Source: Bacillota bacterium (GTDB taxonomy: Bacteria > Bacillota > Dethiobacteria > Dethiobacterales > Dethiobacteraceae). Taken from it: 64,000 nt of DNA. Shown in pieces: positions 12,986-44,453 of this stretch. Location: positions 7,902-71,901 of the forward strand of contig QLUR01000006.1 in the NCBI GenBank assembly GCA_018725565.1, written 5' to 3'. A program made the translations under genes and the position numbers. Every line of letters begins with the position of its first letter. The first letter of the stretch is position 1. Below the pieces are notes generated by a model that was not told the origin of the DNA, did not search any database, and was given only the letters and a program-made list of their open reading frames with translations.

Positions 12986-13021
12986 CTCTGCAAATACAGG
13001 TGCGACCCTGCATTCCCGCTT

Positions 13022-13534: not shown

Positions 13535-13575
13535 CTGATAAAAATAAAAAAGACAGGATTTTTTCCTGTCTTTTA
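13535..13575 (-). terminator. intrinsic terminator downstream of the small Zn-ribbon ORF
   Basis: AAAGACAGG-loop-CCTGTCTTT hairpin (13549-13574); on the minus strand it is followed by TTTTTTATTTTT. Confidence 0.75.
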
Positions 13576-13586
13576 CCAGAAACCGT

Positions 13587-13772: not shown

Positions 13773-13950
13773 GAGCCGCCTCCTTAGAGGTTTGATCAGG
13801 CAATGTTAACAGAATGTTAACCTCCTGTTAGTGTTATATTCTTTCCCCCTTGATTTTTCCCTGCCGCGTAGAAAATTTTTAAAATTTTATTTAAATTATT
13901 TTGCCTGCGCTGCCCTGCTTTATACATCTTTTAACAACTTTCCAAAAATC

Positions 13951-14451: not shown

Positions 14452-14475
14452 CCTGTCCTCCGGCTTGAGATTTTC

Positions 14476-24306: not shown

Positions 24307-24372
24307 GATGTGCGCTTCAATACAAACGACGAAAAGATTAAGTGAAAAATTTAGTGAGTGAGGGATGTTTAG

Positions 24373-24735: not shown

Positions 24736-24760
24736 AAAATGCTTCTTTTAGGAAGGATGA

Positions 24761-25840: not shown

Positions 25841-25865
25841 CCGAAAAAGGGAGGAGCGTTGGGCG

Positions 25866-27611: not shown

Positions 27612-27994
27612 TGATTTTTATAATTCACCCCTGATAATATGATTTCCGGTATCCTCATCATTAGCTTCAGCAGCCCTTGCCAGCATCTGCACAGTATAGG
27701 CAAACGCATTCTCCGCATCTTTGATTTGCGCTGATAAAGCCCAAGAAAAAGTATCTGCATCACCAGATTTTCTAAAACAGAAAGATCGTAACGGGTGATC
27801 TCCCTGCCATAATTAAGAGCCAGAAGGCAAAGAGTATTGTCGATGTGAAAAACCATATTTTCCAGCCAAGGGCATCCAGCGAATCCTTGAGTTTCAGCTG
27901 AAATTCAGAATAGTTAAATTCCCCCTCTAAAAGAATTTAAAACGTTTTCGGCTACTTGTAGGAAACTCTCCTTGATTTGACGAATTAATTCCAT
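27612..27994 (-). pseudogene. decayed minus-strand gene remnant between the two halves of the glyco island
   Basis: ATG 27992-27994 with GGAGGTG SD opens MELIRQIKESFLQVAENVLNSFRGGI then two in-frame stops; further readable pieces in other frames (e.g. ...FRKSGDADTFSWALSAQIKDAENAFAYTVQMLARAAEANDEDTGNHIIRGEL*); family not recognised. Confidence 0.35.
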
Positions 27995-28202
27995 GAGAAA
28001 CTTCACCTCCGAGTGGCTACTTTCGTAGTTACTCATCCTGGATGGCGGATGGTGAGGTCTCTCTTCTTTGTGATGCAGGGGCTTTCTTGCAAAACATCCT
28101 ACAGTAAGTTTACTCTAACCTGGCGTATATTTCTTTCTTTGTTGACACTATCTGCACAAGAGCTACGCTGGGAGGAAGAAATGAGCGAGAAGCTAAAAAT
28201 AA

Positions 28203-31200
28203 ATGTTTGAGGTGAAGACAGTGACAGAATTGGAAAGCTTGTATCATCAATCATTATCCCGCGCTTTGGAAAAAGCTGCCGGAATGGAAAAGGTGGATTT
28301 AGTGGTGGGCATCCCCTTTCTAAATGGAGGCGAGGACGCGCAAATTGTTTTGTCCATTCTAGAAGCAGGGCTTGACACCTTTTACCCCGACCTGAAAGCT
28401 TTAATAGTCTGCGCCGCCTGCCCTTCTCTTTCTAGTCTGGAGAACTACGAATCTGAGCGCATATTGCTAACTCGCCTAGACAAAGCCTTGTCGGGTAGAG
28501 GATGGGTGGTGCGCAGCTTAATGGACGTGGCGAACAGATTGACGGCAGACTTAGTGATTGTGGAACCCAGCCTTTTGGCTGCAAAGAGCAATGGTTCACC
28601 GGAAGGCCTGACATCGGACTGGATTAAACTTATGTATCAGCCCGTTCGCGACGGAAGTGCTCAATTTGTGCTGCCCCGCTTTAAATTATCCCATATTAGC
28701 AATAGCATCGGCGACCACCTAGTCTTCCCCCTGCTGGCATCTCTCTACAATCTGGAACTTAAAGGGTGCCTAGACGCCGGGATGACCATTTCTCGCCAAC
28801 TATTGCCCAATCTTCTTGAAGAAGTGCCTATTTGGTCTGGTGAGGTCTATGAATATGGCATAAACTACTGGCTCACAATGCGTGCGTTAGAGCTAACAGC
28901 TGATATCACCGAAGTGTTGCTGGGCACCAAGCCAAAAGCCGCTCTGCCAGTGGGGCTGAATTATATGTTTAGCCAGGCAGTCCATGCGGTTTTTCAGGCT
29001 ATCGGCAAAGGCCAGGATGTCTGGAAACATAATCCCCAGGCTGTGCGCTCAGTGCTAACAATTGGTCCGAGGCATGATCTGTTTCTCCAGGAGGTGACGC
29101 TTGAGCCACGGCCGCACCTAAATCAGCTCCGCAGGGGCTTTAGCCGCTATTACGAGGCGGTCTGGTCGCGTATTTTTTCCGAAGAGCTATGCATCCAGCT
29201 CAAAGAGGCGGCTACAGCTAGCGAAGAAGACTTCTCTTTCCCATCTGCCCTTTGGGCTCAGTTGGTCTACGAATCGCTCATCGCCTATCACTTTATTTCT
29301 ATGCTGGCAAAAGAAGATCTGGCCAATAGCCTGACACCTCTTTTTGAAGGAAGGTTGGCTGGCTTTTTGAAGGAGATTTCCACCCATACCCACTGCGACC
29401 TAAGCGAAGCTAGCTCTGAGCTTACAGTCTGCCCGTTTAACGCTAGGAACATCCTGGAAACGCAAAACGATGCCTTTATTAGCCGCAAACAAGTCTTTCT
29501 GGAAAAATGGCTCCACCACAAAGTGGCGCTGCTGCCCTTTTTACCGGAAATCGCCTATTGGGAATACATTCCCGGCATCCCCATTATCCTGCCCCACCTA
29601 GTCCGGTCAGCATCGGGGAAAAGTGCTCACGTGGCAGGAATTTACGAACGGCTTTTACAGGAATATAAGGAAGAATTCGAAACTTTTGCCCAACAGACAC
29701 TAAATCTCTCCGCTGAGGATGGCTCTGAAAAGCTGGGAACTGCCATACGTAGCTTGGTGGAACAAGTAGAAAAAGATCTGGATCAAATCCTGCTTCCGGG
29801 GGATCTTCACACCTTAGAGGGAATGCAAAAGGTGGCAGATCGTATTTTTGCACTCTACCCTGCCCCTAAAAGCTTCTCTCTTAAAGCAGAGGTGGCCGCC
29901 CGGTTACTGCGGGAACACCCTCCCCGTAACCTTATCACTCTCTGGGGCTACCACAATACGGATGAACTCCTTAAACACCATAACCCACTAGATGTTCTGG
30001 CACTTGCTTCCTGGTCCGAAGTCTCTAAATATTCCACATGGAACAGTGAGTGGCTCAAAGAACAATTGAGGCCTGAACATTTGGAAATATCTCCCATCCG
30101 ACCCCTAGTGGTAAATTACAGTGACTTTCCAGCCCTATCAGGAATGGGGGAAGCAGCCTCGCTGAGCTACCTTACCAGCCGTGTTGTAATTAGCAACCGG
30201 AGGAAAGGGAGCGGCGGCAGTTTCCCCAAAACCCGCATTCTAACCATTATTTTAAAGAGCATCATCGAGTCTGAGCAGTTCGGCAGCATCTGGGAATCAT
30301 TTAAAAAGCAGTCTGGTAAAGATTTTGGCCCAAAGGTTGTTAACTCCATCGAAGGACACTGGGGAGTCAGTCTATTTTCTGGCCACAGTATTTTTGAAAA
30401 TATACAGCAAGAAATTCTGAAGAGCAAACTGTTGGAAATTTCCCGACAAGACTGGGGCAACACAAACGACACGGTGGAAGAAGCTCGTAATCACTTAGCC
30501 CAGATGGCAGCAGTCTACCACCTGGGGCTAACTTTGCCAGACGGCTATTTTATCACCTGCTCGCTCTGGAGTTGGGCCAGCTACAGCTTTAAAGGAGGGA
30601 AGGGCATTCCGACTCCCCTTTCTCTCATGGTCGAGCGGCGCTGGTTCAGCAGCGAATTGTTTTCCCGTTGTTATGAACACGTGATAAGCAGTCGCAATGA
30701 AGTTTTACCAAAAATAGCAGCACTAATGGGGCAGGGAAGGGAGAGCGAGAATCTAGCAGCCCTTTTCCTGGGAGCACCGCCTGACGGTATGGAAATCATC
30801 ATCGATCAGAAAATTGAAAAAGACCTCCCGCAGGCAGGCAAGCTGATTCGCTCTCCCTTCAACCCAATGTTAACCCTAATAGCAGAGCACAACTGGGAGT
30901 CGAAGTACGTTTTAAACTGCGGGGCCATCCGCGTCAAGGGGAATGTTTACATTTTTTATCGGGCTGTGGGTGAAGACGGTATCTCACGCATCGGGCTGGC
31001 CATTAGTAAAAACGGACTACAGGTAGATGAGCGTTTGCCTGAGCCGGTCTTTGGCCCTGCCCACGAGAGTGAAAAAATGGGGTGTGAAGATCCCCGGCTT
31101 ATCGCCATCGAAGGTCGCGTTTACATGCTTTATACTGCCTACGACGGCATTACTCCTCAGATTGCCCTGGCATCTATCGCCGAGGATGATCTTGTCCAAC

Positions 31201-31787
31201 AGCGCTGGCAACACTGGCAGCGCCACGGACTGGTCTTTCCGGGTTTCATCAATAAGAACGCAGTATTGTTCCCAGAACGGTTTAACGGCAAACTGGCCAT
31301 GTACCACCGCATCGCTCCCAGCATCTGGGTAACCTTTGCCAGCAACTTTGACACCCCCTGGCCCCGGGAAGGGCATAGGCTTATCATGGGCAGCCGCTCT
31401 GGGATGATGTGGGACGCTGTTAAAATCGGATCAGGTGCACCTCCCCTGAAAACCCGTTTTGGTTGGCTATTAATCTATCACGGAGTGGACTACGGCTTCC
31501 GCTATCGGCTTGGTGTTTTCCTCACTGCCCTAGACGATCCGGCGAAGCTCATCTACCGCTCCCCAAACCCCATCCTAGAGCCGGAAAAGTCTTATGAAAT
31601 TGGTGTTTCAGGCCAGAGTTGGGTGCCAAACGTGGTCTTTACCTGCGGAGCAGTCTCAGCTATTGACAAAGATATCTTAGATGAAGCTGATGAAATCCTT
31701 GTTTATTACGGCGGGGCGGACACCGTCATCGGTGTCGCTTCTGCCCGGGTAGCCGACCTTATCCCGGCGCGATTTCGTCAAGGATGA
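28203..31787 (+). CDS. 1194-aa fusion protein: ~870-aa N-terminal region of unknown family + C-terminal GH130 (beta-mannoside phosphorylase-type) domain
   Basis: C-terminal ~310 aa align by eye with the 322-aa GH130 two genes downstream (GCEDPRL / IEDPRI, NAVLFPERFNGK / NVVLFPEKFDGR, KIGSGAPP / KIGPGATP, WLLIYHGV / WLQIYHGV, NVVFTCG, YYGGADTV / YWGGADKV); start ambiguous (ATG 28203 or GTG 28221 after GAGGTG). Confidence 0.75.
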   Translation: MFEVKTVTELESLYHQSLSRALEKAAGMEKVDLVVGIPFLNGGEDAQIVLSILEAGLDTFYPDLKALIVCAACPSLSSLENYESERILLTRLDKALSGRGWVVRSLMDVANRLTADLVIVEPSLLAAKSNGSPEGLTSDWIKLMYQPVRDGSAQFVLPRFKLSHISNSIGDHLVFPLLASLYNLELKGCLDAGMTISRQLLPNLLEEVPIWSGEVYEYGINYWLTMRALELTADITEVLLGTKPKAALPVGLNYMFSQAVHAVFQAIGKGQDVWKHNPQAVRSVLTIGPRHDLFLQEVTLEPRPHLNQLRRGFSRYYEAVWSRIFSEELCIQLKEAATASEEDFSFPSALWAQLVYESLIAYHFISMLAKEDLANSLTPLFEGRLAGFLKEISTHTHCDLSEASSELTVCPFNARNILETQNDAFISRKQVFLEKWLHHKVALLPFLPEIAYWEYIPGIPIILPHLVRSASGKSAHVAGIYERLLQEYKEEFETFAQQTLNLSAEDGSEKLGTAIRSLVEQVEKDLDQILLPGDLHTLEGMQKVADRIFALYPAPKSFSLKAEVAARLLREHPPRNLITLWGYHNTDELLKHHNPLDVLALASWSEVSKYSTWNSEWLKEQLRPEHLEISPIRPLVVNYSDFPALSGMGEAASLSYLTSRVVISNRRKGSGGSFPKTRILTIILKSIIESEQFGSIWESFKKQSGKDFGPKVVNSIEGHWGVSLFSGHSIFENIQQEILKSKLLEISRQDWGNTNDTVEEARNHLAQMAAVYHLGLTLPDGYFITCSLWSWASYSFKGGKGIPTPLSLMVERRWFSSELFSRCYEHVISSRNEVLPKIAALMGQGRESENLAALFLGAPPDGMEIIIDQKIEKDLPQAGKLIRSPFNPMLTLIAEHNWESKYVLNCGAIRVKGNVYIFYRAVGEDGISRIGLAISKNGLQVDERLPEPVFGPAHESEKMGCEDPRLIAIEGRVYMLYTAYDGITPQIALASIAEDDLVQQRWQHWQRHGLVFPGFINKNAVLFPERFNGKLAMYHRIAPSIWVTFASNFDTPWPREGHRLIMGSRSGMMWDAVKIGSGAPPLKTRFGWLLIYHGVDYGFRYRLGVFLTALDDPAKLIYRSPNPILEPEKSYEIGVSGQSWVPNVVFTCGAVSAIDKDILDEADEILVYYGGADTVIGVASARVADLIPARFRQG

Positions 31788-31840
31788 CGTGATTCTAAAA
31801 CTCCTCCGGATTAACCTGTTGGGAAGGGGATTTTTTGAAA

Positions 31841-32857
31841 ATGAGAATTGCCCTGCTTTCTCCTATCGCCTGGAGGACTCCACCCCGCAACTATGGACCT
31901 TGGGAACGTGTAGTTTCACTAATTACAGAAGGCCTGCAAAAAAAGGGGATAGATGTTACCCTGTTTGCCACGGCTGACTCACTAACAGAGGGAAAGCTCC
32001 ATGCTGTAGTGCCACGCCCTTACGAAGAAGACAAATTGCTTGATCCAAAGGTATGGGAGTGTCTTCATATCTCCGAGATGTTTGAAAGAGCTAAAGGTTT
32101 TGATCTAATCCATAACCATTTCGACTTTTTGCCACTCACCTACTCCAGGTTGACCAGAACGCCCGTCCTCACTACTATCCACGGCTTTTCTAGTCCGAAG
32201 ATACTGCCTGTATACAAAAAATATAACGACACAACTTTTTATGTGTCCATCAGTAACGCTGATCGCTCACCGGAACTGGATTATATCGCTACCGTTTATC
32301 ATGGTATCGATATTGAAAACTTCGCATTTCAGGAAACACCTGAAGATTACCTGCTCTTTTTAGGGCGCATCCATCACGACAAAGGTGTCAGTGAAGCGAT
32401 TCAGATTGCCCGTAAAGTCGGCATGAAACTGATCCTTGCCGGGATTATTCAGGATGAAGCTTATTTTAAAGAACGAGTTGAACCTTTCCTTGATGGTTCC
32501 CAAATCAACTATGTAGGTACTGTAACTCCTGAGTTGAGAAATGAGTTGCTTGGGAAAGCCTTTGCTTTTATCCATTCAATCAATTTCAATGAGCCTTTTG
32601 GCTTATCTGTGGTGGAAGCTGGCGCCTGTGGAACACCAGTTGTGGCTTTTAACAAGGGCTCTATGCCGGAGATAATTGTGGATGGCGAAAACGGGTTTCT
32701 CGTTGATGATGTTTCTTCCGCAGTGGAGGCGATAGGTCAGCTAAAAACCATATCACGTTATAAGTGCCGGGCAATAGTGGCAGAAAAGTTTTCACAAGAG
32801 CAAATGGTGGAAAATTATCTGGCAGTGTACCGGCAGATAATAGAAAAAAACAATTAA
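31841..32857 (+). CDS. GT4-family glycosyltransferase (small, ~338 aa)
   Basis: ORF 31835..32857; MRIALLSPIAWRTPPRNYGPWERV N-terminus, C-terminal EPFGLSVVEAGACGTPVVAFNKGSMPEII (E-x7-E region) typical of GT4; ATG 31841 preferred. Confidence 0.8.
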   Translation: MRIALLSPIAWRTPPRNYGPWERVVSLITEGLQKKGIDVTLFATADSLTEGKLHAVVPRPYEEDKLLDPKVWECLHISEMFERAKGFDLIHNHFDFLPLTYSRLTRTPVLTTIHGFSSPKILPVYKKYNDTTFYVSISNADRSPELDYIATVYHGIDIENFAFQETPEDYLLFLGRIHHDKGVSEAIQIARKVGMKLILAGIIQDEAYFKERVEPFLDGSQINYVGTVTPELRNELLGKAFAFIHSINFNEPFGLSVVEAGACGTPVVAFNKGSMPEIIVDGENGFLVDDVSSAVEAIGQLKTISRYKCRAIVAEKFSQEQMVENYLAVYRQIIEKNN

Positions 32858-32896
32858 CGGTGGCGCTAATTGGTAACCCCGGAGGAGGATCTAATT

Positions 32897-33838
32897 GTGC
32901 TGAAACGGGAATCCGTAGTAAAAAGATATGAAAAAAATCCTATCCTTACCAAGAATGATGTGCCTTATCCGGTAGTTACAGTTCATAACGCCGGAGTAGT
33001 CAAAGCAGACGGCCGCTATTGGATGATTTTTCGGTCACATCTTTATAACGGACGCTCCATTTTGGGCTTGGCAGAGAGTTCCGACGGCTACCTGTTCACT
33101 GTCAGATCAGAGCCATTTATGACACCTGCACAAGAAGGCATTTTTGCCGAATATGAGGAATATGGAATAGAAGATCCACGAATCTGCAAAATCGACCAGG
33201 ATTTTGTCATTACTTACAGTGCCTATTCAAGGCACGGTGTAAGGGTCGCATTGGCTAAGACCCGGGATTTTAAGGCCGTGGAAAGAATAGCGCTGATTAC
33301 TCAGGCAGACCAGCGCAACGTTGTTCTTTTTCCGGAAAAGTTCGATGGCCGTTTTGTCCGCCTAGATCGCCCACACACAGAAATCAACCCTTGGTCAATT
33401 TGGATTTCATACTCGCCTGATTTAATTCACTGGGGCAACTCAAAGGTAATCGTCAAGCCGGAAGTCTACCATTGGGATGAAATGAAAATCGGCCCCGGAG
33501 CTACCCCCTTTAAGACCGACAAAGGCTGGCTGCAGATCTATCATGGCGTCTTTCGCACAATGGACGGCGCAGTGTACAGACTCGGCGCAATTCTGCATGA
33601 TCTGAATGATCCTTCCCTGGTTCTCGGGGTGGCTGACGAATGGATTCTTGAGCCTGAAGACCCTTGGGAGGTAACCGGGTATGTGCATAATGTGGTTTTT
33701 ACCTGTGGCGCGACTCCTGAAGAAGATGGAACGGTAAAAATCTATTGGGGAGGGGCGGACAAGGTAATGTGCGTGGGAACAGCAAACGTTAGCGACTTGG
33801 TTGCTTTGTGCTTGGAAAAACCAAGAAATCCCGTTTGA
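32897..33838 (+). CDS. GH130 family glycoside phosphorylase/hydrolase (PH1107-related 'glycosidase')
   Basis: ORF 32870..33838; KNPILT..., GIEDPRI, FPEKFDGRFVRLDRP, KIGPGATP, WLQIYHGV, YRLGAILHDLNDP, NVVFTCG; GTG 32897 sits 8 nt after GGAGGAGG. Confidence 0.8.
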   Translation: MLKRESVVKRYEKNPILTKNDVPYPVVTVHNAGVVKADGRYWMIFRSHLYNGRSILGLAESSDGYLFTVRSEPFMTPAQEGIFAEYEEYGIEDPRICKIDQDFVITYSAYSRHGVRVALAKTRDFKAVERIALITQADQRNVVLFPEKFDGRFVRLDRPHTEINPWSIWISYSPDLIHWGNSKVIVKPEVYHWDEMKIGPGATPFKTDKGWLQIYHGVFRTMDGAVYRLGAILHDLNDPSLVLGVADEWILEPEDPWEVTGYVHNVVFTCGATPEEDGTVKIYWGGADKVMCVGTANVSDLVALCLEKPRNPV

Positions 33839-33984: not shown

Positions 33985-34020
33985 AGGAGCCCCCAGCCGG
34001 GGGCTCCTGCTTATTTTTTC
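33985..34020 (+). terminator. intrinsic terminator closing the plus-strand glyco operon
   Basis: AGGAGCCCCC-agcc-GGGGGCTCCT (33985-34008) followed by GCTTATTTTTT; overlaps the stop of the convergent ferritin-like gene. Confidence 0.8.
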
Positions 34021-34316
34021 AGCTTGGCGATGAGTTCTTCCACTTCTTCTTCGCCCTCGGCGTAAAACTTCTCCTCGTCGGGCGCAAGCTCCTTTAACAG
34101 GCGCAAGAATTCGCCGGCGTGGACAATTTCTTCATCGGCGATTTCCTTTAACACGGCGACCGCCAAGGGGTTATCTACAGACTCGGCCAACTGCATATAC
34201 AGCTGTACAGCTTCGTACTCCGCCGCCACCATAAAACGGATGGCCCGGACCAATTCGGCGTGGGAAAGTTTCCTATCAGCCTTTAACCCGGAAAATGGAT
34301 GGCCAAACTCCGGCAT
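34011..34316 (-). CDS. EncFtn/Flp-type ferritin-like protein (four-helix-bundle half-ferritin)
   Basis: ORF 34011..34337; LSHAELVRAIRFMVAAEYEAVQLYMQLAE...ADEEIVHAGEF matches the E-x-x-H di-iron pattern of encapsulin-associated ferritin-like proteins; ATG 34314-34316 after GAGGAGG. Confidence 0.65.
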   Translation of the reverse strand: MPEFGHPFSGLKADRKLSHAELVRAIRFMVAAEYEAVQLYMQLAESVDNPLAVAVLKEIADEEIVHAGEFLRLLKELAPDEEKFYAEGEEEVEELIAKLKK

Positions 34317-34372: not shown

Positions 34373-34846
34373 TTATCCTGCCGCTGCCGCTTCCTTCATT
34401 TTTTCGAGGATCTTTCGCAGCTCCACTTTATTTAGGTTTCCGTGATATTCGCCGTCAATCTCTGCGAGCGGGCCCAGTGCGCATGCGCCAAGGCAGTTTA
34501 CCGTTTCCAGGGTGTACTCGCCGTCTGCGGAAGTTTTTCCACGCTCCACGCACAAGCAGCGGGAAACCTCCTCCACAATTTCCTCGCTGCCGCGGACATG
34601 GCAGGCAGTTCCGGTGCAGACTGTCACTTTGTGGCGCCCGCGCGGTTCCAGGGAGAAAACCTTGTAAAACGTGACGATTCTATAAAGCTCCATCAGCGGT
34701 TTATTAAGCAGGACAGCCAGTTCGCGCAACACGGCTTCCGGCAAATAGTTGAAATGACTTTGAATGGCATACAACAGCTGGATTAGAGAACGATCATGTT
34801 CTTTCACCATGGCCGACAGATCCATTGGTTTACTAACTTTTCCCAT
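34373..34846 (-). CDS. NuoE/HydC-like thioredoxin-fold [2Fe-2S] subunit
   Basis: 157 aa, CTGTACHVRGS ... CLGACALGP cluster ligands. Confidence 0.85.
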   Translation of the reverse strand: MGKVSKPMDLSAMVKEHDRSLIQLLYAIQSHFNYLPEAVLRELAVLLNKPLMELYRIVTFYKVFSLEPRGRHKVTVCTGTACHVRGSEEIVEEVSRCLCVERGKTSADGEYTLETVNCLGACALGPLAEIDGEYHGNLNKVELRKILEKMKEAAAAG

Positions 34847-34867
34847 CGTATCACCTTTTCCCCACGT

Positions 34868-36457
34868 TTAGAGTCGTATGTCTAAAACGTCTTTTGCTTC
34901 CGCCCTGTCCAGCTCCATGATATAGGGGATGCCACTGATTTCGCTTGCTTCCCTGGTAATGGCGGCAATATCGTTGCGTGTCAGGTAGCCAAGAGCAAAC
35001 TTACGGCTTCCGCACATCAGCTGCCGCATGCCCTGAGCCAGGCGCTCATAGTAAGTAAAGAGGCCTAAAGCACCGGCAGGTATCTGCGCAAAGCGCTCCG
35101 CGCCGAAGTGAGCTTTCAATTCAGCGGCGGTGACAAACACTTCTTCCACACTGTTGCCGAAGCGCTCGACATAAACAGGCAGTTTCTTTTCATTAATTTT
35201 ATTTCCGATGGTTTTGCCGACCATGACCGCAGCTATGGGAGCCCGTGCCATACCGATGGCTTTGACGAAAGGCGCGCCTAAGGACAGCCCTTTGAAAATT
35301 TGATCCTCCATGGTAATGCCGCCGGCAAAAATAACATCCGGGACATACTCGCCCTTATCGGCCAAATATTTGCAGTATTCGTAGGTAAGCGAGTGCAGCT
35401 CAACAACCGGCACGCCCCATTCATTCATCATGCGCCACGGGCTCATGCCAGTGCCGCCGCCGGCTCCGTCAACGGTTAAATAATCAATTTTTGCCAGCGA
35501 GGCAAACCGGACCGCACGCGCTAAATCAACGGGACGATAAGCGCCGGTTTTCAATGTTATATATTTGGCGCCTGCAGCGCGCAGTTCTTCCACCCGGGCC
35601 AAAAACGATTCCAATTCAACCATACCAACACGGGAATGGCGCTCAAATTCTTTGAATGTTCCTCTTTTGAACGACTCAATGACCAGCGGATTTTCCGGAT
35701 CGGGCAAGACGACATACCCGCGTTTTTTCAGCAACTGCGCCTTGGCTAGGTCGTTAATTTTCACTTCACCGCCGATGTCCTTGGCGCCCTGCCCCCATTT
35801 AAGCTCCACGATTTCGACGCCCAATTCTCTGATGGCATATTCCTGCACGCCCAGACGGGTATCTTCAACATTGGCCTGGACAACTATGGCGCCGTAGCCG
35901 TCCTCCTGCCACTCCTGAAACAAGGAAACTCTCTTTTTTAAATCAACTGTCTCTATTACCCGGCCATTTCTTATGATTGCCTGCGGGTCCATGCCGACAA
36001 CATTTTCACCGATGGTTAAGCCGCAGCCGGAGATGGCGGAGCCGATGGCCAGTCCTTCCCAGTTTTGCTTAGCGACATTGGTAGACCCGATGCCGGGAAT
36101 CATAAAGGGCAGGCGCAACTTAATCCCTTTGTCGGCGCCTAATCTTGTTTCCAGATTAACAGCGGGGAAGATGGCTTTGTCGCTGTCAGCCTCAATGCCC
36201 ACAGCGCCAACGGCCGTCCCCATGATATTAAAGTGGGAATAATCTACAGGATAGTCTTTTTCCGAAGCCGTGGTAATAATGCCAAAGGGCTGCGGATAAA
36301 TGGTTTCATGGCCGCGATAGGCCGATTTGCCAATTTCACACATCCCTACGCAGCCGTCTATACAGGTGACACACATGCCGCTAAAGGGGCTGACTGATCC
36401 TTCCGTACGGTTTTTGGTTAATGTTGCGGCTGAAACATTTGGTCTTGAAATCGTCAT
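34868..36457 (-). CDS. stand-alone glutamate-synthase FMN-domain family protein (GltB domain-2 like)
   Basis: 529 aa, Cys-rich N-terminus CVTCIDGCVGMCEIG, TIM-barrel FMN region with DGAGGGTGMSPW and FAGGI motifs; no amidotransferase or GXGXG domain in the ORF. Confidence 0.75.
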   Translation of the reverse strand: MTISRPNVSAATLTKNRTEGSVSPFSGMCVTCIDGCVGMCEIGKSAYRGHETIYPQPFGIITTASEKDYPVDYSHFNIMGTAVGAVGIEADSDKAIFPAVNLETRLGADKGIKLRLPFMIPGIGSTNVAKQNWEGLAIGSAISGCGLTIGENVVGMDPQAIIRNGRVIETVDLKKRVSLFQEWQEDGYGAIVVQANVEDTRLGVQEYAIRELGVEIVELKWGQGAKDIGGEVKINDLAKAQLLKKRGYVVLPDPENPLVIESFKRGTFKEFERHSRVGMVELESFLARVEELRAAGAKYITLKTGAYRPVDLARAVRFASLAKIDYLTVDGAGGGTGMSPWRMMNEWGVPVVELHSLTYEYCKYLADKGEYVPDVIFAGGITMEDQIFKGLSLGAPFVKAIGMARAPIAAVMVGKTIGNKINEKKLPVYVERFGNSVEEVFVTAAELKAHFGAERFAQIPAGALGLFTYYERLAQGMRQLMCGSRKFALGYLTRNDIAAITREASEISGIPYIMELDRAEAKDVLDIRL

Positions 36458-36490
36458 CTGTTTCCCTCCCCCAAAAATATAGTATAATCT

Positions 36491-37159
36491 TTATTTTTGT
36501 TCACAGGCGACACAAGGGTCCATATAACACATTACATCGCTGAACTTATCATTGCATGGCGGGGCCGAATTAAGGCAGGCATTGCAAAGCGTTGTTTCCG
36601 CCTGCGGGCCTTGGCAGCGCGCCATGCAAACGGGACAAATGTACATGCAGCCGCCGCAAAGGCGACAGTCATCACTCTTTTTAGCGAATGCGGTGGTAAT
36701 TTTCCGCTGTTCTCCGCGGCTGACAAAATCAATGGCTTTGCCCTGCATTTGCTCCGAGCACATACGGACGCACAGCCCGCACAGGATACAGGTGTCATTT
36801 CTGGGGCGCATCCGCACCTGTGTAACATGGTGCTTGGAGGCCAGACACTGGATTGTTTTTGAACCGGGAGCTGTCGCCACATACATTTCCAGAAGAGTTT
36901 TTCTTACTTTCATGACCCTGTTTGAATGCGTCCGCACCACAAGCCCTTCTGTTGCCTTAAAATCACAGGAGGCCACCAGCTTGGCTTTAGGGGCGGCGCC
37001 GACTTCTACCACGCACAATCTGCACGCGCTGCCCGGACTTAACGCCTCATCGTTACAGAGCGTGGGGATTTCGATACCGTACGTACGGGCAGTCTCCAGC
37101 AGCGTGGTTCCTTCTTCCACCGCAACCTCCAGACCATTGAGAGTGAACGTAATCATCAT
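36491..37159 (-). CDS. NuoG/HydA-N-terminal-type ferredoxin subunit ([2Fe-2S] + [4Fe-4S] clusters)
   Basis: 222 aa, TFTLNG...CNDEALSPGSACRLCVVEV (plant-type 2Fe-2S), CILCGLCVRMC and CRLCGGCMYICPVC; no H-cluster or molybdopterin domain. Confidence 0.8.
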   Translation of the reverse strand: MMITFTLNGLEVAVEEGTTLLETARTYGIEIPTLCNDEALSPGSACRLCVVEVGAAPKAKLVASCDFKATEGLVVRTHSNRVMKVRKTLLEMYVATAPGSKTIQCLASKHHVTQVRMRPRNDTCILCGLCVRMCSEQMQGKAIDFVSRGEQRKITTAFAKKSDDCRLCGGCMYICPVCMARCQGPQAETTLCNACLNSAPPCNDKFSDVMCYMDPCVACEQK

Positions 37160-37166
37160 CTCACCC

Positions 37167-39047
37167 CTAACTTAAAAGCACTGCAGAAAACTTGCAGCTC
37201 TCAAGACAGATTCCGCACTTTTGGCACGCGTTGGTGTCAATTACATACAACTGCCCTTTTTCCCCGCTAATGGCAGATACAGGACAATTTTTGGCGCAAA
37301 CGCCGCAACCTTTGCAGTGCTCTTCAAGGATAGAATAGAAAATCAGGTCTTTGCAGACCCCTGCGGCACATTTTTTCTCCTCGATATGCTCTTTATACTC
37401 ATGGGCAAAGTAACGGATGGTTGACAGGACCGGGTTGGCCGCGGTTTGGCCCAGACCGCACATGGATGCGTCCGCCACCACTTCCGCCAAATCCAGCAAC
37501 AGCTCCATGCTTTGGGAATTACCTTGACCGGCCGTTATATCGTTTACCACATCCAGCATCCGCACTATCCCTTCACGGCAGGAAAAGCATTTACCGCAGG
37601 ACTCGTCTTTTAAAAAGCGCAAAAAGTACTTGGCGAGGTCCACGGCGCACGTTTTTTCGTCCAGCACAATCATCCCGCCGGACCCCATCATAGAACCGGC
37701 TTCCTTTAATTCCTCAAAGTCTGTCGGCATGTGAAGCTGTCCTGCGTCTAAACATCCGCCTGAGGGGCCGCCGGTCTGCACAGCTTTAAAGGCCCGGCCA
37801 CCCTGTATCCCTCCGCCGATACCAAAAATAATATCTTCCAGGGGTATGCCGATGGGAACTTCCACCAGACCTGTATTATTAACTTTGCCAGTTAAGCAGA
37901 ATATTTTCGTTCCTCCGGATTTGCCGGAGCCCAAGGCCGCATACTTCTCCGCGCCTAATTGAAAAATCAGCGGCACATTTGCCAATGTTTCCACATTATT
38001 AAGGACGGTAGGTTTTCCCAAATAACCGCTTTCCACTAAATGAGGCGGTTTCTGTCGCGGTTCACCCACTTTAGCTTCCAGTGAAGCGATCAGGGCCGTA
38101 GATTCCCCGCAGATAAACACCCCGCCACCCATGAAAATGGAAATGTTAAACGAATGGCCGCTCCCGAGAATGTCATGACCTAACAGCCCCTGCTCCAGCG
38201 CCTGAGCAATAGCTTTTTGCAGTCTTTTCATGGCCAGCGGATATTCCGCCCGGACATAGACCAGCCCTTCCGTGGCCCCGGTGGCATACCCTGCTATGAT
38301 CATGCCTTCTAACACAGCATGTGGGTCGCTTTCGAGGAGCGAGCGGTCCATGAATGCGCCGGGGTCTCCCTCATCAGCGTTGCAGACGATATACTTCACA
38401 TCGCTTTGCCGGTGCAAAGCCTCCTGCCATTTTACGCCAGTTGAAAAGCCGGCGCCGCCGCGGCCGCGCAGCTTAGCCGACGACACCTGCTGCACGACGG
38501 CTGCCGGTGTCATCTGCAGAACTTTGGCCAGTGACTGGTAGCCGCCGCTTGCCAGGTAGTCGGCGATCTCCTCAGGATCTATCCTGCCGGCATTTTGCAG
38601 GACAAGCCTGGTTTGCTGCCTGTAAAACGGGACCTCGTCCTGCGTCGCATAACGCGTTCCCTCAGGCGATGTGTAGAGCAAACGCTCTACCAGTTCACCC
38701 CGTCGCAAGGTCTTCTCAATAATTTGCCGGACATCGTCCGGCCTTACATGGATATAAAAAATGCCAGCCGGCTCAATGATAACAAGCGGCCCCTGCTGGC
38801 AAAAGCCGTGGCAGCCGCTGCAGATAATGCCCGTTTCATGTCTTTCGCTAAAAACTACGTCGGCGCCGCTTTGACCAAGCAATTTCTGAAACTGCTCAAA
38901 TACTTTCAGTGAACCGTTGATCACACAGCCGGTTCCCGCACAAACTATGACCCTGTTTTGCACCAGCCCCCGTTTATTGAGATAATATTCTCTTAGTTGC
39001 TGAAGATGTTCCGCGTTTTTAATACGCACGTTTATCCCCGTACTCAT
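37167..39047 (-). CDS. NuoF/HydB-like NADH-binding flavoprotein with extra N-terminal [2Fe-2S] and C-terminal 2x[4Fe-4S] domains
   Basis: 626 aa, CAGTGC...CSGCHGFC, GRGGAGFSTGVKW, SCGKCFSCREG, CKGCGVCAKNCP, CQKCGICLESC. Confidence 0.88.
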   Translation of the reverse strand: MSTGINVRIKNAEHLQQLREYYLNKRGLVQNRVIVCAGTGCVINGSLKVFEQFQKLLGQSGADVVFSERHETGIICSGCHGFCQQGPLVIIEPAGIFYIHVRPDDVRQIIEKTLRRGELVERLLYTSPEGTRYATQDEVPFYRQQTRLVLQNAGRIDPEEIADYLASGGYQSLAKVLQMTPAAVVQQVSSAKLRGRGGAGFSTGVKWQEALHRQSDVKYIVCNADEGDPGAFMDRSLLESDPHAVLEGMIIAGYATGATEGLVYVRAEYPLAMKRLQKAIAQALEQGLLGHDILGSGHSFNISIFMGGGVFICGESTALIASLEAKVGEPRQKPPHLVESGYLGKPTVLNNVETLANVPLIFQLGAEKYAALGSGKSGGTKIFCLTGKVNNTGLVEVPIGIPLEDIIFGIGGGIQGGRAFKAVQTGGPSGGCLDAGQLHMPTDFEELKEAGSMMGSGGMIVLDEKTCAVDLAKYFLRFLKDESCGKCFSCREGIVRMLDVVNDITAGQGNSQSMELLLDLAEVVADASMCGLGQTAANPVLSTIRYFAHEYKEHIEEKKCAAGVCKDLIFYSILEEHCKGCGVCAKNCPVSAISGEKGQLYVIDTNACQKCGICLESCKFSAVLLS

Positions 39048-39192
39048 GCACTCACTCCTTTGTGCGATTTTTCTACAGGCAATTTAAAATACCTGTTTCA
39101 TGATGCGAAAATATTTCTTCCTTGCCAAATCATTAACTTCTGACACTGCCCGCCTGGCCTAATTTTCTGGAATGCAAATTTTAGCCCAGCTC

Positions 39193-39221
39193 TTGACTTT
39201 CGGAAAAGGAAGAATTATGAT
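39193..39221 (+). promoter_or_regulatory. sigma-A promoter of the CoADR-fusion gene
   Basis: TTGACT (39193-39198) - 17 nt - TATGAT (39216-39221). Confidence 0.65.
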
Positions 39222-39227
39222 TAAATC

Positions 39228-39248
39228 AGATACCCTGCCAGGGTATCT
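39228..39248. promoter_or_regulatory. perfect 21-bp palindromic operator candidate (CsoR/CstR-type ATACCC...GGGTAT)
   Basis: AGATACCCTG-C-CAGGGTATCT, 10+1+10 perfect inverted repeat starting 7 nt after the -10 hexamer. Confidence 0.7.
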
Positions 39249-39302
39249 GCGATGGATTGTTAGGAATCCGGTATGAAGAAATGTTTTTAAGGAGTGAAAG
39301 AA

Positions 39303-41795
39303 ATGTCAGGAAGAGTGCTTATTGTCGGTGGTGTAGCTGGGGGGGCCAGCGCCGCGGCCAGACTCAGGCGGCTGGATGAGGATGCGGAAATAATCATTTT
39401 CGAAAAAGGGGGGTATATTTCTTTTGCTAACTGCGGCCTTCCCTATTATATCGGAGAAACAATCAGGGAAAAGTCGGCACTGATTGTCCAGACGCCCGAA
39501 AGAATGAGATCCATGTTCAACATTGAAGTCAGGCTGTACCACGAAGTTACCGGCGTTAATCCTGCACAAAAGACAATCGCGGTTAAAGACCTGAGTAACG
39601 GAACCGCATATGAAATGACTTATGACCGGCTGATCCTTTCCCCGGGCGCAAAGCCCCTGCGCCCGCCGATTCCCGGTATCGACAGCCCCGGCATTTTTAC
39701 CCTGCGCACCATCCCCGATACCGATGCTATCAAGGGATATCTGAGCAAGCAAGCAGTTAAGAGTGCGGTTATTGTTGGCGGCGGCTATATCGGACTGGAA
39801 ATGGCGGAAAATCTTCATGCTTTGGGGCTGAAGGTCTCGGTAGTGGAAAAAATGGGACAGCTAATAGGCACAATGGACTACGATATGGCCGCATTGGTTC
39901 AGGGGCACCTGCTGGCTCAGGGAGTACACCTTTATTTAAGTGACGGCGTCACAGAGTTCCGGCAAAACAATAGCGGCCTGGAAGTCATCTTGGAAAGCGG
40001 TAAAACAATTGACTGCCAAATGGTCTTACTATCCATCGGTGTCAGGCCTGACACAGCCTTTCTGGCCGGAAGCGGCCTGGCGCTGGGAGAGCGTGGCGGA
40101 ATTAAGGTAAATATGCGTCTGCAGACTTCCGACCCCCATATCTACGCCATTGGGGACGCCGCAGAAACAACCGATTTTGTCAGCGGCGAGCAGGCACTCA
40201 TCCCTTTGGCCGGCCCTGCGAACAAGCAAGGCCGTATCGTTGCCAATAATATCGCCGGCCGCGCCTCTGTTTATAACGGCACCCAAGGCACAGCAATCGC
40301 CAAGATTTTTGACCTGGCGGTGGCCACAACAGGTCAAAACGAAAAAACATTACAACTAAGAGATGTAAAGTTTTACACCACGGTGACCCACGCCAAATCC
40401 AATGCCGATTACTACCCCGGCGCCTTGCCGATGACCGTCAAGCTGCACTACACACCTGACGGCCTGCTGCTGGGAGCGCAAATTGTCGGTTACAGCGGTG
40501 TCGATAAGGCTATGGACACCTTGGCCTCGGCGTTGCGCTTTAAACGGACAGTCTATGACCTGCAGGAACTGGAGCTTGCCTATGCACCGCCTTTTTCCAC
40601 CGCTAAAACACCGGTCAACGTGGCCGGTCTGGTGGCCGGCAACAGGCTCGATGGCACTATGGACGTGGCCTTGTGGTCTGAAATTGACGCCCTGAACGCC
40701 TCTGCCACTATTCTGGATGTAGGAGAAAAGGGAGAAAGGGAGCTGGGATCTATCGCCGGCTCCGTTCACATCCCGCTTGGGCAGTTGCGTGCCAGGATAA
40801 ACGAATTGGACAAAGGCAAGGAAGTCGTTGTTTACTGCCAGATAGGCCTAAGGGCATACCTGGCAGCGCGGTTGCTGAGTCAAAAAGGTTTCAGGGCCAG
40901 AGTGCTTTCCGGCGGCTTCAGACACTATAAAGCGGTTAAACAGTCGGAAGACGACCTGCAAAAACAAAATTACCGTTTTGGAGATGAAGAAATGTCTTTT
41001 CAGGACCTAACTAAAGAAGATATTTACAGCAGCGAAAGCAGCTCGGCTGTCCCCAGGCAGGCCGGCGATACAGTCCTTCTTAATGCCTGCGGCCTTTCCT
41101 GCCCCGGTCCGATTGTGGAAGTAAATAAAAAAATGTCACAGCTAAAAAGTGGCGACGTCCTGGAAGTGCTCGCTTCCGATCCCGGCTTTGCCAATGATAT
41201 TAAAGCCTGGTGCGCAAAAACCGGGCATACTCTGTTAAGTACCGGCAAAGAAGGCTTGTTCTTTAAGGCTAGAATAGCCAAGGGGCTTCCCAGTCAGGTC
41301 GCCTCAGGGACTGCGGTACCGCTTCCGCAAAACAAAACTATCATTGTTTTCAGCGGTGACCTTGATAAGGCCATTGCCTCCTTTATAATCGCCAACGGCG
41401 CTGCCGCCATGGGCAGAAAAGTTACCATGTTCTTTACCTTTTGGGGACTCAATATCCTGCGCAAGCCGGCAGGCAAAGCCCCGCAAAAAGACCTTCTGGC
41501 CAGGATGTTCGGCATGATGATGCCCAGAGGCAGCAGGAAGCTAGGGTTATCGCGCATGAATATGCTGGGTATGGGGCCGAAAATGATACGCATGGTCATG
41601 GGCATGAAAAACGTCGACTCACTGGAAAACTTGATTCAGATGGCCAAAGATAACGGTGTCGTGCTGATGGCTTGCCAGATGTCAATGGATGTCATGGGCA
41701 TCAAGCACGAAGAACTGATTGAAGGCGTGGAAATAGGCGGTGTAGCCACCTACCTCGGAGAAGCTGAAGACTCCAATATTAATCTGTTTATTTAA
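39303..41795 (+). CDS. four-domain fusion: CoA-disulfide/persulfide reductase (pyridine nucleotide-disulfide oxidoreductase) + rhodanese + TusA + DsrE/DsrF-like
   Basis: ORF 39294..41795; VLIVGGVAGGASAA, redox Cys SFANCGLPYYIG; rhodanese loop VVVYCQIGLRA; TusA CGLSCPGPIVEV; C-terminal KTIIVFSGDLDKAIASFIIANGAAAMG...MACQMSMDVMG; ATG 39303 8 nt after AGGAG. Confidence 0.85.
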   Translation: MSGRVLIVGGVAGGASAAARLRRLDEDAEIIIFEKGGYISFANCGLPYYIGETIREKSALIVQTPERMRSMFNIEVRLYHEVTGVNPAQKTIAVKDLSNGTAYEMTYDRLILSPGAKPLRPPIPGIDSPGIFTLRTIPDTDAIKGYLSKQAVKSAVIVGGGYIGLEMAENLHALGLKVSVVEKMGQLIGTMDYDMAALVQGHLLAQGVHLYLSDGVTEFRQNNSGLEVILESGKTIDCQMVLLSIGVRPDTAFLAGSGLALGERGGIKVNMRLQTSDPHIYAIGDAAETTDFVSGEQALIPLAGPANKQGRIVANNIAGRASVYNGTQGTAIAKIFDLAVATTGQNEKTLQLRDVKFYTTVTHAKSNADYYPGALPMTVKLHYTPDGLLLGAQIVGYSGVDKAMDTLASALRFKRTVYDLQELELAYAPPFSTAKTPVNVAGLVAGNRLDGTMDVALWSEIDALNASATILDVGEKGERELGSIAGSVHIPLGQLRARINELDKGKEVVVYCQIGLRAYLAARLLSQKGFRARVLSGGFRHYKAVKQSEDDLQKQNYRFGDEEMSFQDLTKEDIYSSESSSAVPRQAGDTVLLNACGLSCPGPIVEVNKKMSQLKSGDVLEVLASDPGFANDIKAWCAKTGHTLLSTGKEGLFFKARIAKGLPSQVASGTAVPLPQNKTIIVFSGDLDKAIASFIIANGAAAMGRKVTMFFTFWGLNILRKPAGKAPQKDLLARMFGMMMPRGSRKLGLSRMNMLGMGPKMIRMVMGMKNVDSLENLIQMAKDNGVVLMACQMSMDVMGIKHEELIEGVEIGGVATYLGEAEDSNINLFI

Positions 41796-42811: not shown

Positions 42812-44453
42812 TTAAGCATTCAGCCGGCAGCCGTACACACACCCCGTATAAAGCCGCCTGGAAAAATAGTAGGCAAGAATTGCAAACAGCAGCAGGGATG
42901 CAGCAATAAACCAAACTCCCAACTGCCAGAACGCTGCCAGCAGCAACGAGGCCCCCCAAACCAGCGCGGCCATGCGCAAAGTAAACCCGACCACACTGCA
43001 GCAAATGCTTTTCTCCATGGCCAGATCGCCGGGAGGAATTTGCGCGATTCCGGCCGTTATCCGGCCGTTTAACAGGCGATACATGGCCAGGATAAGTGCC
43101 ACTCCCAATACAAAAAACAGGAAGGCCAGAGGCAACTCCCTATTCAGGAAGGCTGCGACCAGCAGGCCCACATAAGCCAGCAGCAGGGCCGTAAAGATGC
43201 TGACCGGCTCCTGTTCCTCCTTATCCGACAAGATGACCGGCCTCATCACACCGGAAACGGTTTTTGCGGCAAACTTCCAGGTAGTAGGAACGGTACGGGA
43301 AAAGGCCCGCTGGATGACGGCCGAATTGCGCATGAACAACGGAGCAAGCAGTGTCATCACCAAAACGTATAAACCGGTAAAATTATAGAGCAGCGGAGAG
43401 ATCACCCCGGCCGCGAGGCCCAGCGTGGCATAAATCATGGCGTACTCCCCGCGGGCGACCATCCCCGCTCCTATGGCCACCGCCTTGCGGGGGGACAGCC
43501 CGCTGATAAAGGAAGCCGCGGAAGTCACCACAACTTCCGCCATTATGGATAGGGGAGCAAACAACGCCACATACAATGCCACCTGCGGAAAAACCAGCGG
43601 GTTTAAGTGCATCCCAAAAGAAAGAAAAAAAACGACCAAAAAGGCGTCTCTGAAAGGCGCGAGAGTCTGATGCAACCTCTCCACCAACTCTTTCTGGTCA
43701 ATAATCATCCCCAGCACAAAGGCGCCGGCCGCGGCAACTATCCCTAACTGCAGGCTTCCGGCAGCCACCAGCAGCAACATGCCAAACAGGGCGGCAATAA
43801 ACAGCTCCTCGCTGTCAATTTGCGCCAGCCTCTTGGAAATTTTCCCTAGCAGCCGTGCGCCCAGGGTTAAAAACAGGCCGTAAAACAACACCGCCTTCAC
43901 AACCGCGAGCAGCACCGTATCCAGTGTTACCGCCTGGGCCGCCACAATGCCCGATAACACGCCCAAGTAAATCACGGCGATAAAATCCTCATAAACCATG
44001 ATCCCCATCAGAATTTCCGCCTCGCGGGAGGCGGTGCGCTTCATTTCAAACAGCAGCTTGGCTACCACGCCGGAGGAACTCATCGCCATGATGCCAGCCA
44101 GAAAAAGCCGGTCTGTCTGGGGCCAGCCCACCAGATACCCGGCCAAAAACCCTACCGCCAAGTTGGCCAGCAGTTCCGTGGAACCAATAAACAACACCGA
44201 GCGCCTAACCCCGTTGCAGGCGTTTAAGTGAAAACTCCAGCCCCAGAAAAAACATTAAAAGTACAACGCCAACCTCACCCAGCATTGTGATCACGTTCGG
44301 GTTGCGGATCAGGTCAAAGGCATACGGACCAAGCACCATCCCCAATATCACATAACCGACAATCACCGACTGGCCAAGCCGCCGGGAGAGCATTGCGCCC
44401 ACAAAGCCGGCGGCAAGAACTATCCCTAAGTCCAGGAGCAATACGTTACCCAT
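42812..44453 (-). pseudogene. CPA2 (Kef/KhtU-type) monovalent cation:proton antiporter, split by a +1 frameshift at a 4-nt homopolymer
   Basis: ORF 44205..44453 (TM1-2, ...LGLEFSLKRLQRG*) and ORF 42812..44197 (rest of Na_H_Exchanger domain plus ~4 extra TM) are consecutive parts of one protein; removing one C from CCCC at 44209-44212 restores ...LKRLQRVRRSVLFIGSTELL... Confidence 0.75.

Follow-up and report, generated by a model that had tools for sequence, protein, structure and literature searches.

Bfu enzymes play a central part in the energy conservation of anaerobes, and the mechanism by which they bifurcate electrons is still debated. Characterised members of the family use H2, formate, NADPH or aldehydes as third substrate. 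All have in common an invariant core, BfuBC, which houses clusters B1-B5 and C1 and in which the B2 histidine is near-universal, whereas it is absent from non-bifurcating homologues (Schut et al. 2022). In Type 2 members, BfuA lacks A3 and A5 and the catalytic site is located on an extra subunit (Schut et al. 2022). The closest described system is WorABCSL, the tungsten aldehyde oxidoreductase-Bfu of Acetomicrobium mobile (PDB 9mqx), a Type 2 enzyme whose WorA subunit lacks A3 and docks a separate catalytic module through a specialised C-terminus (PMC12318220). Here we describe a related four-gene operon in a 64,000-nucleotide stretch of Bacillota DNA (Dethiobacteraceae; GCA_018725565.1, contig QLUR01000006.1, positions 7,902 to 71,901), referred to as the window. 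The operon combines a BfuABC-type module with a stand-alone protein that resembles the flavin mononucleotide (FMN) domain of glutamate synthase (GltS).

The operon would encode a soluble four-subunit Type 2 Bfu enzyme, with an FMN barrel in place of the hydrogenase, formate dehydrogenase (FDH) or WOR module. We regard it as probable that, in such a complex, NADH drives the reduction of both ferredoxin and a 2-oxo or 2-imino acid, the latter at the GltS-like FMN. Four co-directional, tightly packed open reading frames (ORFs) on the minus strand fill positions 34373-39047 of the window. They follow each other at distances of 7, 33 and 21 nucleotides (nt) in the order bfuB, bfuA, GltS-like gene and bfuC, and each has an ATG start preceded by a Shine-Dalgarno-like sequence. 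A first-pass annotation, made from the DNA letters and translated ORFs only, had described four co-directional genes with gaps of 7-33 nt, and the ORFs lie at exactly those coordinates. Lengths are given in amino acids (aa), with the evidence for each assignment in brackets:

37167-39047, minus strand: bfuB, 626 aa, HydB/BfuB-type NADH- and FMN-binding subunit (Pfam, NCBIfam, PDB alignments, ligand mapping)
36491-37159, minus strand: bfuA, 222 aa, short NuoG/HydA-N-terminal-type Fe-S connector (Pfam, Cys conservation, PDB relatives)
34868-36457, minus strand: GltS-like gene, 529 aa, GltS-FMN-domain-like (beta/alpha)8 barrel, presumed to be the catalytic subunit for the third substrate (Pfam, alignments, AF2, Foldseek, hhalign, BLASTP)
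34373-34846, minus strand: bfuC, 157 aa, NuoE/HydC-type [2Fe-2S] subunit (Pfam, PDB matches)

Pfam and NCBIfam models identify in BfuB a 2Fe-2S_thioredx domain (residues 30-112), Complex1_51K, SLBB and NADH_4Fe-4S domains and a C-terminal 2x[4Fe-4S] Fer4 domain (573-622), in agreement with its earlier description as a 626-aa NuoF/HydB-like subunit with an extra N-terminal 2Fe-2S and a C-terminal 2x4Fe-4S domain. The protein aligns end to end with HydB of T. kivui (8a6t_B, E = 8e-214) and with NiFe-BfuB of A. mobile (7t2r_B, E = 2e-210). Further full-length relatives in the PDB are WorB of A. mobile (9mqx_B, the third-best match), NfnB (9n5u_B) and HydB of T. maritima (7p5h_B). The NuoF subunits of non-bifurcating FDH and complex I cover only the core of BfuB, from residues ~132-160 to ~551-560.

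Cluster ligands in BfuB were mapped by alignment to the PDB subunits, with sites defined after Schut et al. 2022, and their conservation was scored in 18 short and 43 long homologues. The ligands of the N-terminal [2Fe-2S] cluster B5 are C36, C41, C79 and C83, those of the [4Fe-4S] cluster B1 (C484, C487, C490 and C530) are present and conserved, and the B3/B4 ferredoxin domain holds eight cysteines between C578 and C618. The B2 ligands of A. mobile (C438, C476, H525, C531 and C536) correspond to C467, T505, H554, C560 and C565 in the window. Threonine at the second B2 position (T505) is also found in [FeFe]-type enzymes and in about two thirds of BfuB sequences. BfuB retains every site that separates bifurcating Bfu from non-bifurcating NuoF homologues. 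The Bfu-type core suggested in the first-pass annotation is thus backed by the full-length HydB/BfuB alignments and by the preservation of the five B2 positions and of the B1, B3/B4 and B5 cysteines. The same holds for its NuoE/HydC-like subunit: BfuC matches 2Fe-2S_thioredx (PF01257; NuoE/HoxE-like) over its full length (E = 7e-45), has canonical C1 [2Fe-2S] ligands (C77, C82, C118 and C122) and has its best PDB matches in WorC (9mqx_C), NiFe-BfuC (7t2r_C) and HydC (7p5h_C).

BfuA consists of a Fer2_4 domain and a Fer4 dicluster according to Pfam. No H-cluster or molybdopterin domain was found in it with Pfam or NCBIfam, as had been noted before for this 222-aa ferredoxin. Its [2Fe-2S] ligands are C35, C46, C49 and C65, and its 2x[4Fe-4S] motif comprises eight cysteines (C124-C134 and C165-C175). 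The motif of a His-ligated cluster (H-x3-C-x2-C) and a catalytic domain are both absent from BfuA, and a separate catalytic subunit is therefore to be expected. A family-specific C-terminal tail adds eight further cysteines at positions 178, 182, 192, 195, 202, 211, 216 and 219. Over 59 homologues, 20 cysteines are conserved; 19 of these are invariant, while C216 occurs in 55 of the 59. The best PDB relatives are the N-terminus of HydA1 (8a6t_A) and, over almost the full length, the 247-aa WorA (9mqx_A). With a dicluster motif, no A3-type motif and an extra subunit that always adjoins, BfuA is, by its sequence, a Type-2-like connector. An interpretation of the operon as a fragment of a hydrogenase or of complex I was considered and rejected, as it contains no H-cluster, NiFe or membrane subunit.

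The operon thus shares with WorABCSL a BfuBC core and a short BfuA that lacks A3 and a catalytic domain and exchanges electrons with a separate catalytic subunit by way of a specialised C-terminus, as presumed for the present system. The partners differ: WorSL comprises a tungstopterin subunit and a polyferredoxin nanowire, whereas an FMN TIM-barrel protein is found here. The tail of WorA forms a 4-Cys zinc finger with an adaptor helix, in contrast to the eight conserved cysteines in BfuA, and WorABCSL has an aldehyde donor of very low potential, whereas a high-potential acceptor is presumed for the present system. HydABC (T. kivui, 8a6t; T. maritima, 7p5h) and NiFe-HydABCSL (7t2r) have a B subunit that aligns with BfuB over its full length and has the same ligands, and homology extends to the C subunit and to the N-terminal part of A. 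However, the operon has neither an H-cluster nor NiFe, its BfuA ends after the ferredoxin-like domain, and its third substrate would not be H2.

For the 529-aa protein, PF01645 (Glu_synthase) is the sole Pfam match (49.9 bits, cut-off 20.4). This match spans residues 280-399, corresponding to profile positions 186-302 of 369 or a third of the profile, and no NCBIfam model matched the protein. In its relatives P0122 and P0241, the PF01645 match extends to profile positions ~57-309. P0241, with 38% identity to the 529-aa protein, is an 800-aa fusion of 2x[4Fe-4S], FrhB (F420-binding) and a GltS-like barrel, which suggests a barrel with interchangeable electron-input modules (F420, Bfu, GltD). 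The 529-aa protein contains the motifs K220-x2-QGAK226 and E272-R-H-S-R276 and an FMN-phosphate motif, G333-GGTGMSP340, of which GGGTGMSP aligns with GGTGASP of E. coli GltB. In a BLASTP alignment of P0241 with E. coli GltB, both K-x2-QGAKPG-GG and GGTG(A/M)SP align, and through P0241 as a bridging homologue Q223-G-A-K226 corresponds to Q934-G-A-K937 of GltB. The equivalent of the downstream arginine is R246 or R273, depending on gap placement. The AF2 model of the protein is an FMN-type (beta/alpha)8 barrel (pLDDT 86.5). Near the N-terminus, the motif C29-x2-C32-x3-C36-x3-C40 is invariant in alignment A1 and at least 90% conserved in alignment A2. Residues 1-28 are highly conserved in the alignment yet predicted to be disordered by AF2, which suggests an interface peptide.

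Compared with the NADPH-dependent GltBD (E. coli, Azospirillum brasilense) and ferredoxin-dependent GltS (Fd-GltS), the protein has the same PF01645 FMN (beta/alpha)8 barrel with QGAK and GGTG(A/M)SP motifs, but it lacks the amidotransferase, central and GXGXG domains, has an N-terminal C-x2-C-x3-C-x3-C motif and no [3Fe-4S] motif, is extremely divergent in sequence and is combined with a HydBC-type electron input. GltS kinship is the best-supported family assignment that the sequence offers, within which the 529-aa protein is a deeply diverged and isolated branch. Its family stands apart in clustering at 50% identity (1064 clusters at E<1e-3, 180 at E<1e-30).

The remaining parts of a glutamate synthase were searched by scanning all larger ORFs of the window with Pfam and by tblastn with E. 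coli GltB residues 1-430 (amidotransferase), 431-780 (central domain) and 1201-1486 (GXGXG) and with GltD as queries. No amidotransferase (GATase_2) was matched among the window ORFs by Pfam, nor by tblastn in the window or in 83 loci (+/-7 kb), and the central and GXGXG domains had no tblastn match in this same set. GltD had no tblastn match in the 64-kb window. That amidotransferase, GXGXG domain and GltD are missing nearby, as claimed initially, is therefore true for the window by both methods. The absence of GltD does not extend to 57 related loci from most phyla, in which a GltD homologue is fused to the C-terminus of BfuB. The fused domain is 33-35% identical to E. coli GltD over ~420 residues (E down to 7e-69).

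The GltS-like protein is widespread. All 8000 candidates scored in a homology search were significant; the best 120 are 73-97% identical and spread across phyla. It occurs in at least 594 species-representative genomes at 71-84% identity, the closest species-level relative being that of Dethiobacter alkaliphilus (78%). Synteny was assessed in 80 related genome loci, which span more than 10 phyla, the gene order being judged where the flank sufficed. The order bfuC-bfuB-bfuA-GltS-like is found in every one of the 80 loci with enough flank, and bfuA adjoins the GltS-like gene wherever one of the 80 loci has upstream flank. Among the phyla are Bacillota, Planctomycetota (including Scalindua), Zixibacteria, Latescibacterota, Bacteroidota/Ignavibacteria, Acidobacteriota/Aminicenantes, Verrucomicrobiota and Desulfobacterota, and Smithella is also represented. 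The window and its close relatives, among them one of 82% identity, have a permuted B-A-GltS-C order and lie in unrelated neighbourhoods. Identity across loci is highest for the GltS-like protein (71-84%), compared with 49-67% for BfuA, 46-59% for BfuB and 40-63% for BfuC. A single BfuA outlier at 27% is part of a second, unrelated Bfu-like set in L070 (Cytophagia): at 9438-14749 of this locus, a more distant set of BfuC, long BfuB and BfuA-like genes lies directly downstream of the GltS-like gene. The initial proposal that the GltS-FMN protein replaces the catalytic subunit of a hydrogenase or FDH is supported by the synteny in the 80 loci, and we consider it likely that all four gene products assemble into a single Bfu-type complex whose third-substrate site is the GltS-like protein.

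BfuB occurs in two forms, both of which keep the B1 and B2 ligands. The short form of ~616-630 aa, with the ferredoxin domain, is found in the window and in 18-20 loci. The long form of ~1040-1290 aa, in which Fer4_20 and Pyr_redox_2 (the fused GltD) take the place of the ferredoxin domain, is found in more than 40 loci. Non-Bacillota loci mostly encode a ~1058-aa BfuB-GltD fusion (e.g. L007, 3123-6299) together with a BfuC that has a C-terminal extension of ~130 aa; this extension has no Pfam match in the GltD-fused loci. The presence of a true GltD domain among the electron donors of related loci is a further likeness to GltBD. Combinations of a BfuBC core with glutamate-synthase-derived parts are also known from NfnABC/StnABC, the Sporomusa-type, Bfu-type transhydrogenase (9n5u, 8oh5-like). 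There, however, a GltD-like NADPH module on BfuA is the third-substrate site, whereas here GltD, where present, is located on BfuB and replaces the ferredoxin domain, and the extra subunit is a GltB-like FMN barrel. Similarly, FGltS, a putative glutamate synthase dependent on F420 and itself a bioinformatic proposal only, has a GltS-FMN-type protein with an alternative electron input (cf. P0241), but this input is F420H2 instead of NADH/ferredoxin and the enzyme is assumed to be glutamine-dependent.

Upstream of the operon, NtrC-family sigma-54 response regulators are encoded in 34-36 loci, and -24/-12-type motifs are enriched upstream of bfuC, where 9 of 51 loci have them, compared with 0.016 per kb in the background. 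A PPDK_N protein is encoded near the operon in 8-9 loci. In 22 loci, a Cys-rich protein of ~100-150 aa (typically ~117) is encoded between the sigma-54 regulator and bfuC (e.g. L003, 2714-3070; L004, 1823-2176; L007, 1727-2182). It contains two C-x2-C-x5-C...W(H/F)CE(E/Q)(Y/F) repeats, often ends in WHCEEY and is without Pfam match; the window does not encode it. In the Bacillota relatives, IclR-type regulators flank the operon. In Dethiobacter alkaliphilus (L001, 1129-2712), a second GltS-like paralogue, 59% identical, is located between two IclR-type regulators immediately upstream of the C-B-A-GltS-like operon. More distant paralogues (38-54% identity; P0121, P0122 and P0133) are monocistronic without Bfu genes nearby, and their contexts are uninformative on the substrate.

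In the proposed complex, NADH would transfer a hydride to the FMN of BfuB. From there, the uphill branch would run through the BfuC/BfuB clusters and the C-terminal 2x[4Fe-4S] domain to ferredoxin. The downhill branch would lead from B1 via the [2Fe-2S] and the two [4Fe-4S] clusters of BfuA and then via Cys-rich sites, contributed by the BfuA tail and the N-terminus of the GltS-like protein, to the GltS-like FMN. The cysteines of both could bridge the two proteins. The GltS-like FMN would then reduce the C=N or C=O group of a 2-imino or 2-oxo acid by hydride transfer. Bifurcation or its reversal, confurcation, is on balance the expected mode of action.

A candidate reaction is 2 NADH + 2 Fd(ox) + 2-oxoglutarate + NH4+ -> 2 NAD+ + 2 Fd(red) + glutamate, which would make the complex an ammonia-dependent, glutamine-independent, energy-conserving 'glutamate synthase'. 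Operation in reverse, as confurcating glutamate oxidation, may also be possible. Chemistry with 2-oxoglutarate and free ammonia leads among the candidates because the barrel appears GltS-derived with a QGAK and a putative Arg motif, because it is repeatedly teamed with GltD, glutamate dehydrogenase (GDH) and NtrC-type regulators, and because an amidotransferase is never found nearby. The potentials are ~-0.14 V for 2-oxoglutarate + NH4+/glutamate, -0.32 V for NAD+/NADH and ~-0.42 to -0.5 V for ferredoxin, and on these textbook values NADH-driven bifurcation to ferredoxin would be feasible. We nevertheless make the assignment of 2-oxoglutarate/NH3 <-> glutamate as the substrate couple only tentatively.

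Several observations weigh against the proposed function. The putative complex is deduced from synteny only. GDH genes directly flank the operon in only 10 loci, about one in eight, albeit from several phyla (nine by clustering and one further member of the ELFV cluster), and genes for glutamine synthetase (GlnA), PII (GlnK) and the ammonium transporter Amt (AmtB) were found by tblastn in no flank of the window or the 83 loci. Regulators of the NtrC family do not act in nitrogen control alone. In the window itself, neither a regulator nor a GDH gene lies near the operon, and a search for a sigma-54 promoter motif upstream of it found none. The third substrate of all characterised Bfu enzymes is a low- or mid-potential donor, and high-potential organic acceptors have been proposed only bioinformatically, for other Bfu clades. 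The likeness to GltS is also limited. The [3Fe-4S] Cys motif of GltS is absent, with no Cys at residues 363-481, and the 2-oxoglutarate-binding role of the QGAK lysine and the downstream arginine, known from Fd-GltS structures, is putative here. A PDB search with the protein sequence gave no match other than noise and designed TIM barrels, a profile search of the PDB reached GltS only at E 0.19, and the family profile, aligned to E. coli GltB with hhalign, gave 56% probability in the FMN-phosphate region only. In Foldseek, the best PDB matches of the AF2 model are type-2 IDI (IDI-2) and the alpha-hydroxy-acid oxidases lactate monooxygenase, glycolate oxidase and flavocytochrome b2, with GltS outside the best 50; with query-based TM scores of 0.42-0.47, this is a likeness at the level of the general fold. 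The 'GltB-domain-2-only' label of the first-pass annotation therefore overstates the likeness.

In the main rival explanation, the same complex acts on another substrate at the GltS-like barrel, with the Bfu module supplying or accepting the electrons. An alpha-hydroxy acid of the lactate/glycolate type, another 2-oxo or imino acid, an N-alkyl amino acid or an enoate/isoprenoid-type compound are the candidates. The Foldseek ranking and the isolation of the family from canonical GltS in the clustering at E<1e-3 argue in its favour, as do the IclR-type flanks in Bacillota, which are typical of organic-acid catabolism, with the 59% paralogue adjoining, and the stand-alone paralogues in unrelated contexts. 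Other chemistry is moreover known among PF01645 homologues, e.g. in the N-methylglutamate synthase MgsC (PMC6237917). On the other hand, PF01645 is the only significant Pfam family, and the alpha-hydroxy-acid family FMN_dh (PF01070) is without match in the 529-aa protein, showing only weak local matches in two distant relatives. The QGAK-type motifs align with GltB, and the fusion to GltD, the adjoining GDH genes and the NtrC-type regulators all indicate glutamate or nitrogen metabolism, so that we judge another substrate to be rather unlikely, though a serious contender. It is also conceivable, but unlikely, that the enzyme does not bifurcate at all and that the HydBC-like module merely serves as electron input from NADH or reduced ferredoxin, used as alternatives or additively, with no energetic coupling. 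A high-potential acceptor could thermodynamically be reduced by NADH alone, and in most phyla a GltD NAD(P)H module replaces the ferredoxin domain, which would make ferredoxin dispensable for the chemistry of the family. Yet the window BfuB keeps the B2 His/Cys ligands as well as B3/B4 and B5, which characterised non-bifurcating NuoF homologues lack, and the B2 ligands are kept even in the GltD-fused forms.

Two further explanations dispense with the proposed complex. An ordinary split glutamine-dependent glutamate synthase could be imagined since separate domain proteins are known in archaea and some Bacillota, and the view of this genome is the 64-kb window. The amidotransferase, central and GXGXG homologues are nevertheless missing from the window and from within 7 kb of the 83 loci, the protein is far from canonical and archaeal PF01645 proteins (partial Pfam match, no NCBIfam match, another Cys motif), and its invariable partners are BfuA, BfuB and BfuC; a split synthase is accordingly very improbable. 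Even less credible is that two independent enzymes share an operon, namely a BfuABC-like NADH:ferredoxin oxidoreductase and a ferredoxin-dependent GltS-like enzyme. The monocistronic distant paralogues fit such a division, as their barrel apparently works with a diffusible donor. However, no reaction that makes thermodynamic sense would be left to a BfuABC lacking a third-substrate site, the A-GltS-like order is invariant and the GltS-like gene of the window clade even lies between bfuA and bfuC, and the Cys-rich BfuA tail together with the conserved peptide at the N-terminus of the GltS-like protein suggests a dedicated interface. We retain a Type 2 Bfu complex with NADH as electron donor and a GltS-like third-substrate site as the preferred explanation.

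Three further features border the operon:

34011-34316, minus strand: rubrerythrin/EncFtn-like gene, 101 aa, ferritin fold (PF02915 match)
33985-34008, no strand assigned: GC-rich hairpin with a 10-bp stem, directly after the ferritin-like gene (terminator scan and sequence)
39048-39293, minus strand: divergent intergenic region of 246 nt upstream of bfuB (promoter consensus scan)

The rubrerythrin/EncFtn-like gene starts 56 nt after bfuC with its own Shine-Dalgarno sequence and is possibly the fifth gene of the transcript; its product scores 87 bits with NF058679, under the cut-off of 90. It also follows bfuC in a 97%-identical relative (L087/L088) and was found neither in the 82% relative nor in the 80 genome loci. 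Because its conservation is confined to that closest relative, we consider it a lineage-specific passenger outside the module. A role as EncFtn/encapsulin cargo within the system was rejected, since the gene is conserved no further than the closest relative and the 64-kb window showed no gene for an encapsulin shell. The hairpin is the sole strong one of the region in the terminator scan, likely marks where the transcription unit ends and may work in both directions. Upstream of bfuB, weak sigma-70-like matches are located at 39128-39100 and 39241-39214; these are consensus matches only.

The window resembles a Bacillota chromosome, with a dcw cluster, tRNA synthetases, relA, recJ and secDF. 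Divergent from the operon, an 833-aa fusion of Pyr_redox_2, rhodanese, TusA and DsrE_2 is encoded at 39294-41795 on the plus strand; its Pyr_redox_2 part is CoA-disulfide/persulfide-reductase-like. Beyond it, a Na+/H+ exchanger (PF00999) is split over two adjacent minus-strand ORFs (42812-44197 and 44205-44453), which may reflect a frameshift, a pseudogene or a sequencing error. On the other side, a carbohydrate cluster on the plus strand (22036-33838) encodes GT4 glycosyltransferases, a mannose-1-phosphate guanylyltransferase, a phosphoglucomutase and two GH130 proteins, one of 1194 aa with the domain at its C-terminus and the other mannoside phosphorylase-like.

Eighteen of the 57 Bfu clades were uncharacterised in the survey by Schut et al. 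2022, which never mentions glutamate-synthase-like partners. Later structural papers on Bfu enzymes make no mention of such partners either, and our literature search returned no publication describing a Bfu complex with a GltS-like subunit, consistent with the initial remark that no such complex has been characterised. The novelty lies in the presumed catalytic partner, which is new for a complex of the Bfu family, and probably also in the thermodynamic layout. The furthest-reaching interpretation, a widespread and unrecognised electron-bifurcating, ammonia-dependent glutamate synthase/dehydrogenase that would be the first Bfu enzyme with NADH as donor and a C=N acceptor, we regard as doubtful at present. 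Direct testing is feasible because the cultivated genus Dethiobacter carries the operon.

The module is currently annotated automatically as 'NADH-quinone oxidoreductase subunits' next to an 'FMN-binding glutamate synthase family protein'. In metabolic reconstructions it can be mistaken for hydrogenase or complex I fragments. At least 594 species-level genomes carry it, belonging to many phyla of sediments and anaerobic digesters, and its sequence conservation is unusually high. If the proposed function is true, these proteins would constitute a mechanistically informative new class of Bfu enzymes, in which NADH is the donor that is bifurcated and the acceptor is probably organic and of high potential, and could link nitrogen and amino-acid metabolism to the ferredoxin pool. 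Ammonium assimilation could then provide anaerobes with low-potential reduced ferredoxin or, where GltD is fused, with NADPH, and in the reverse direction ferredoxin would pull glutamate oxidation during amino-acid fermentation.

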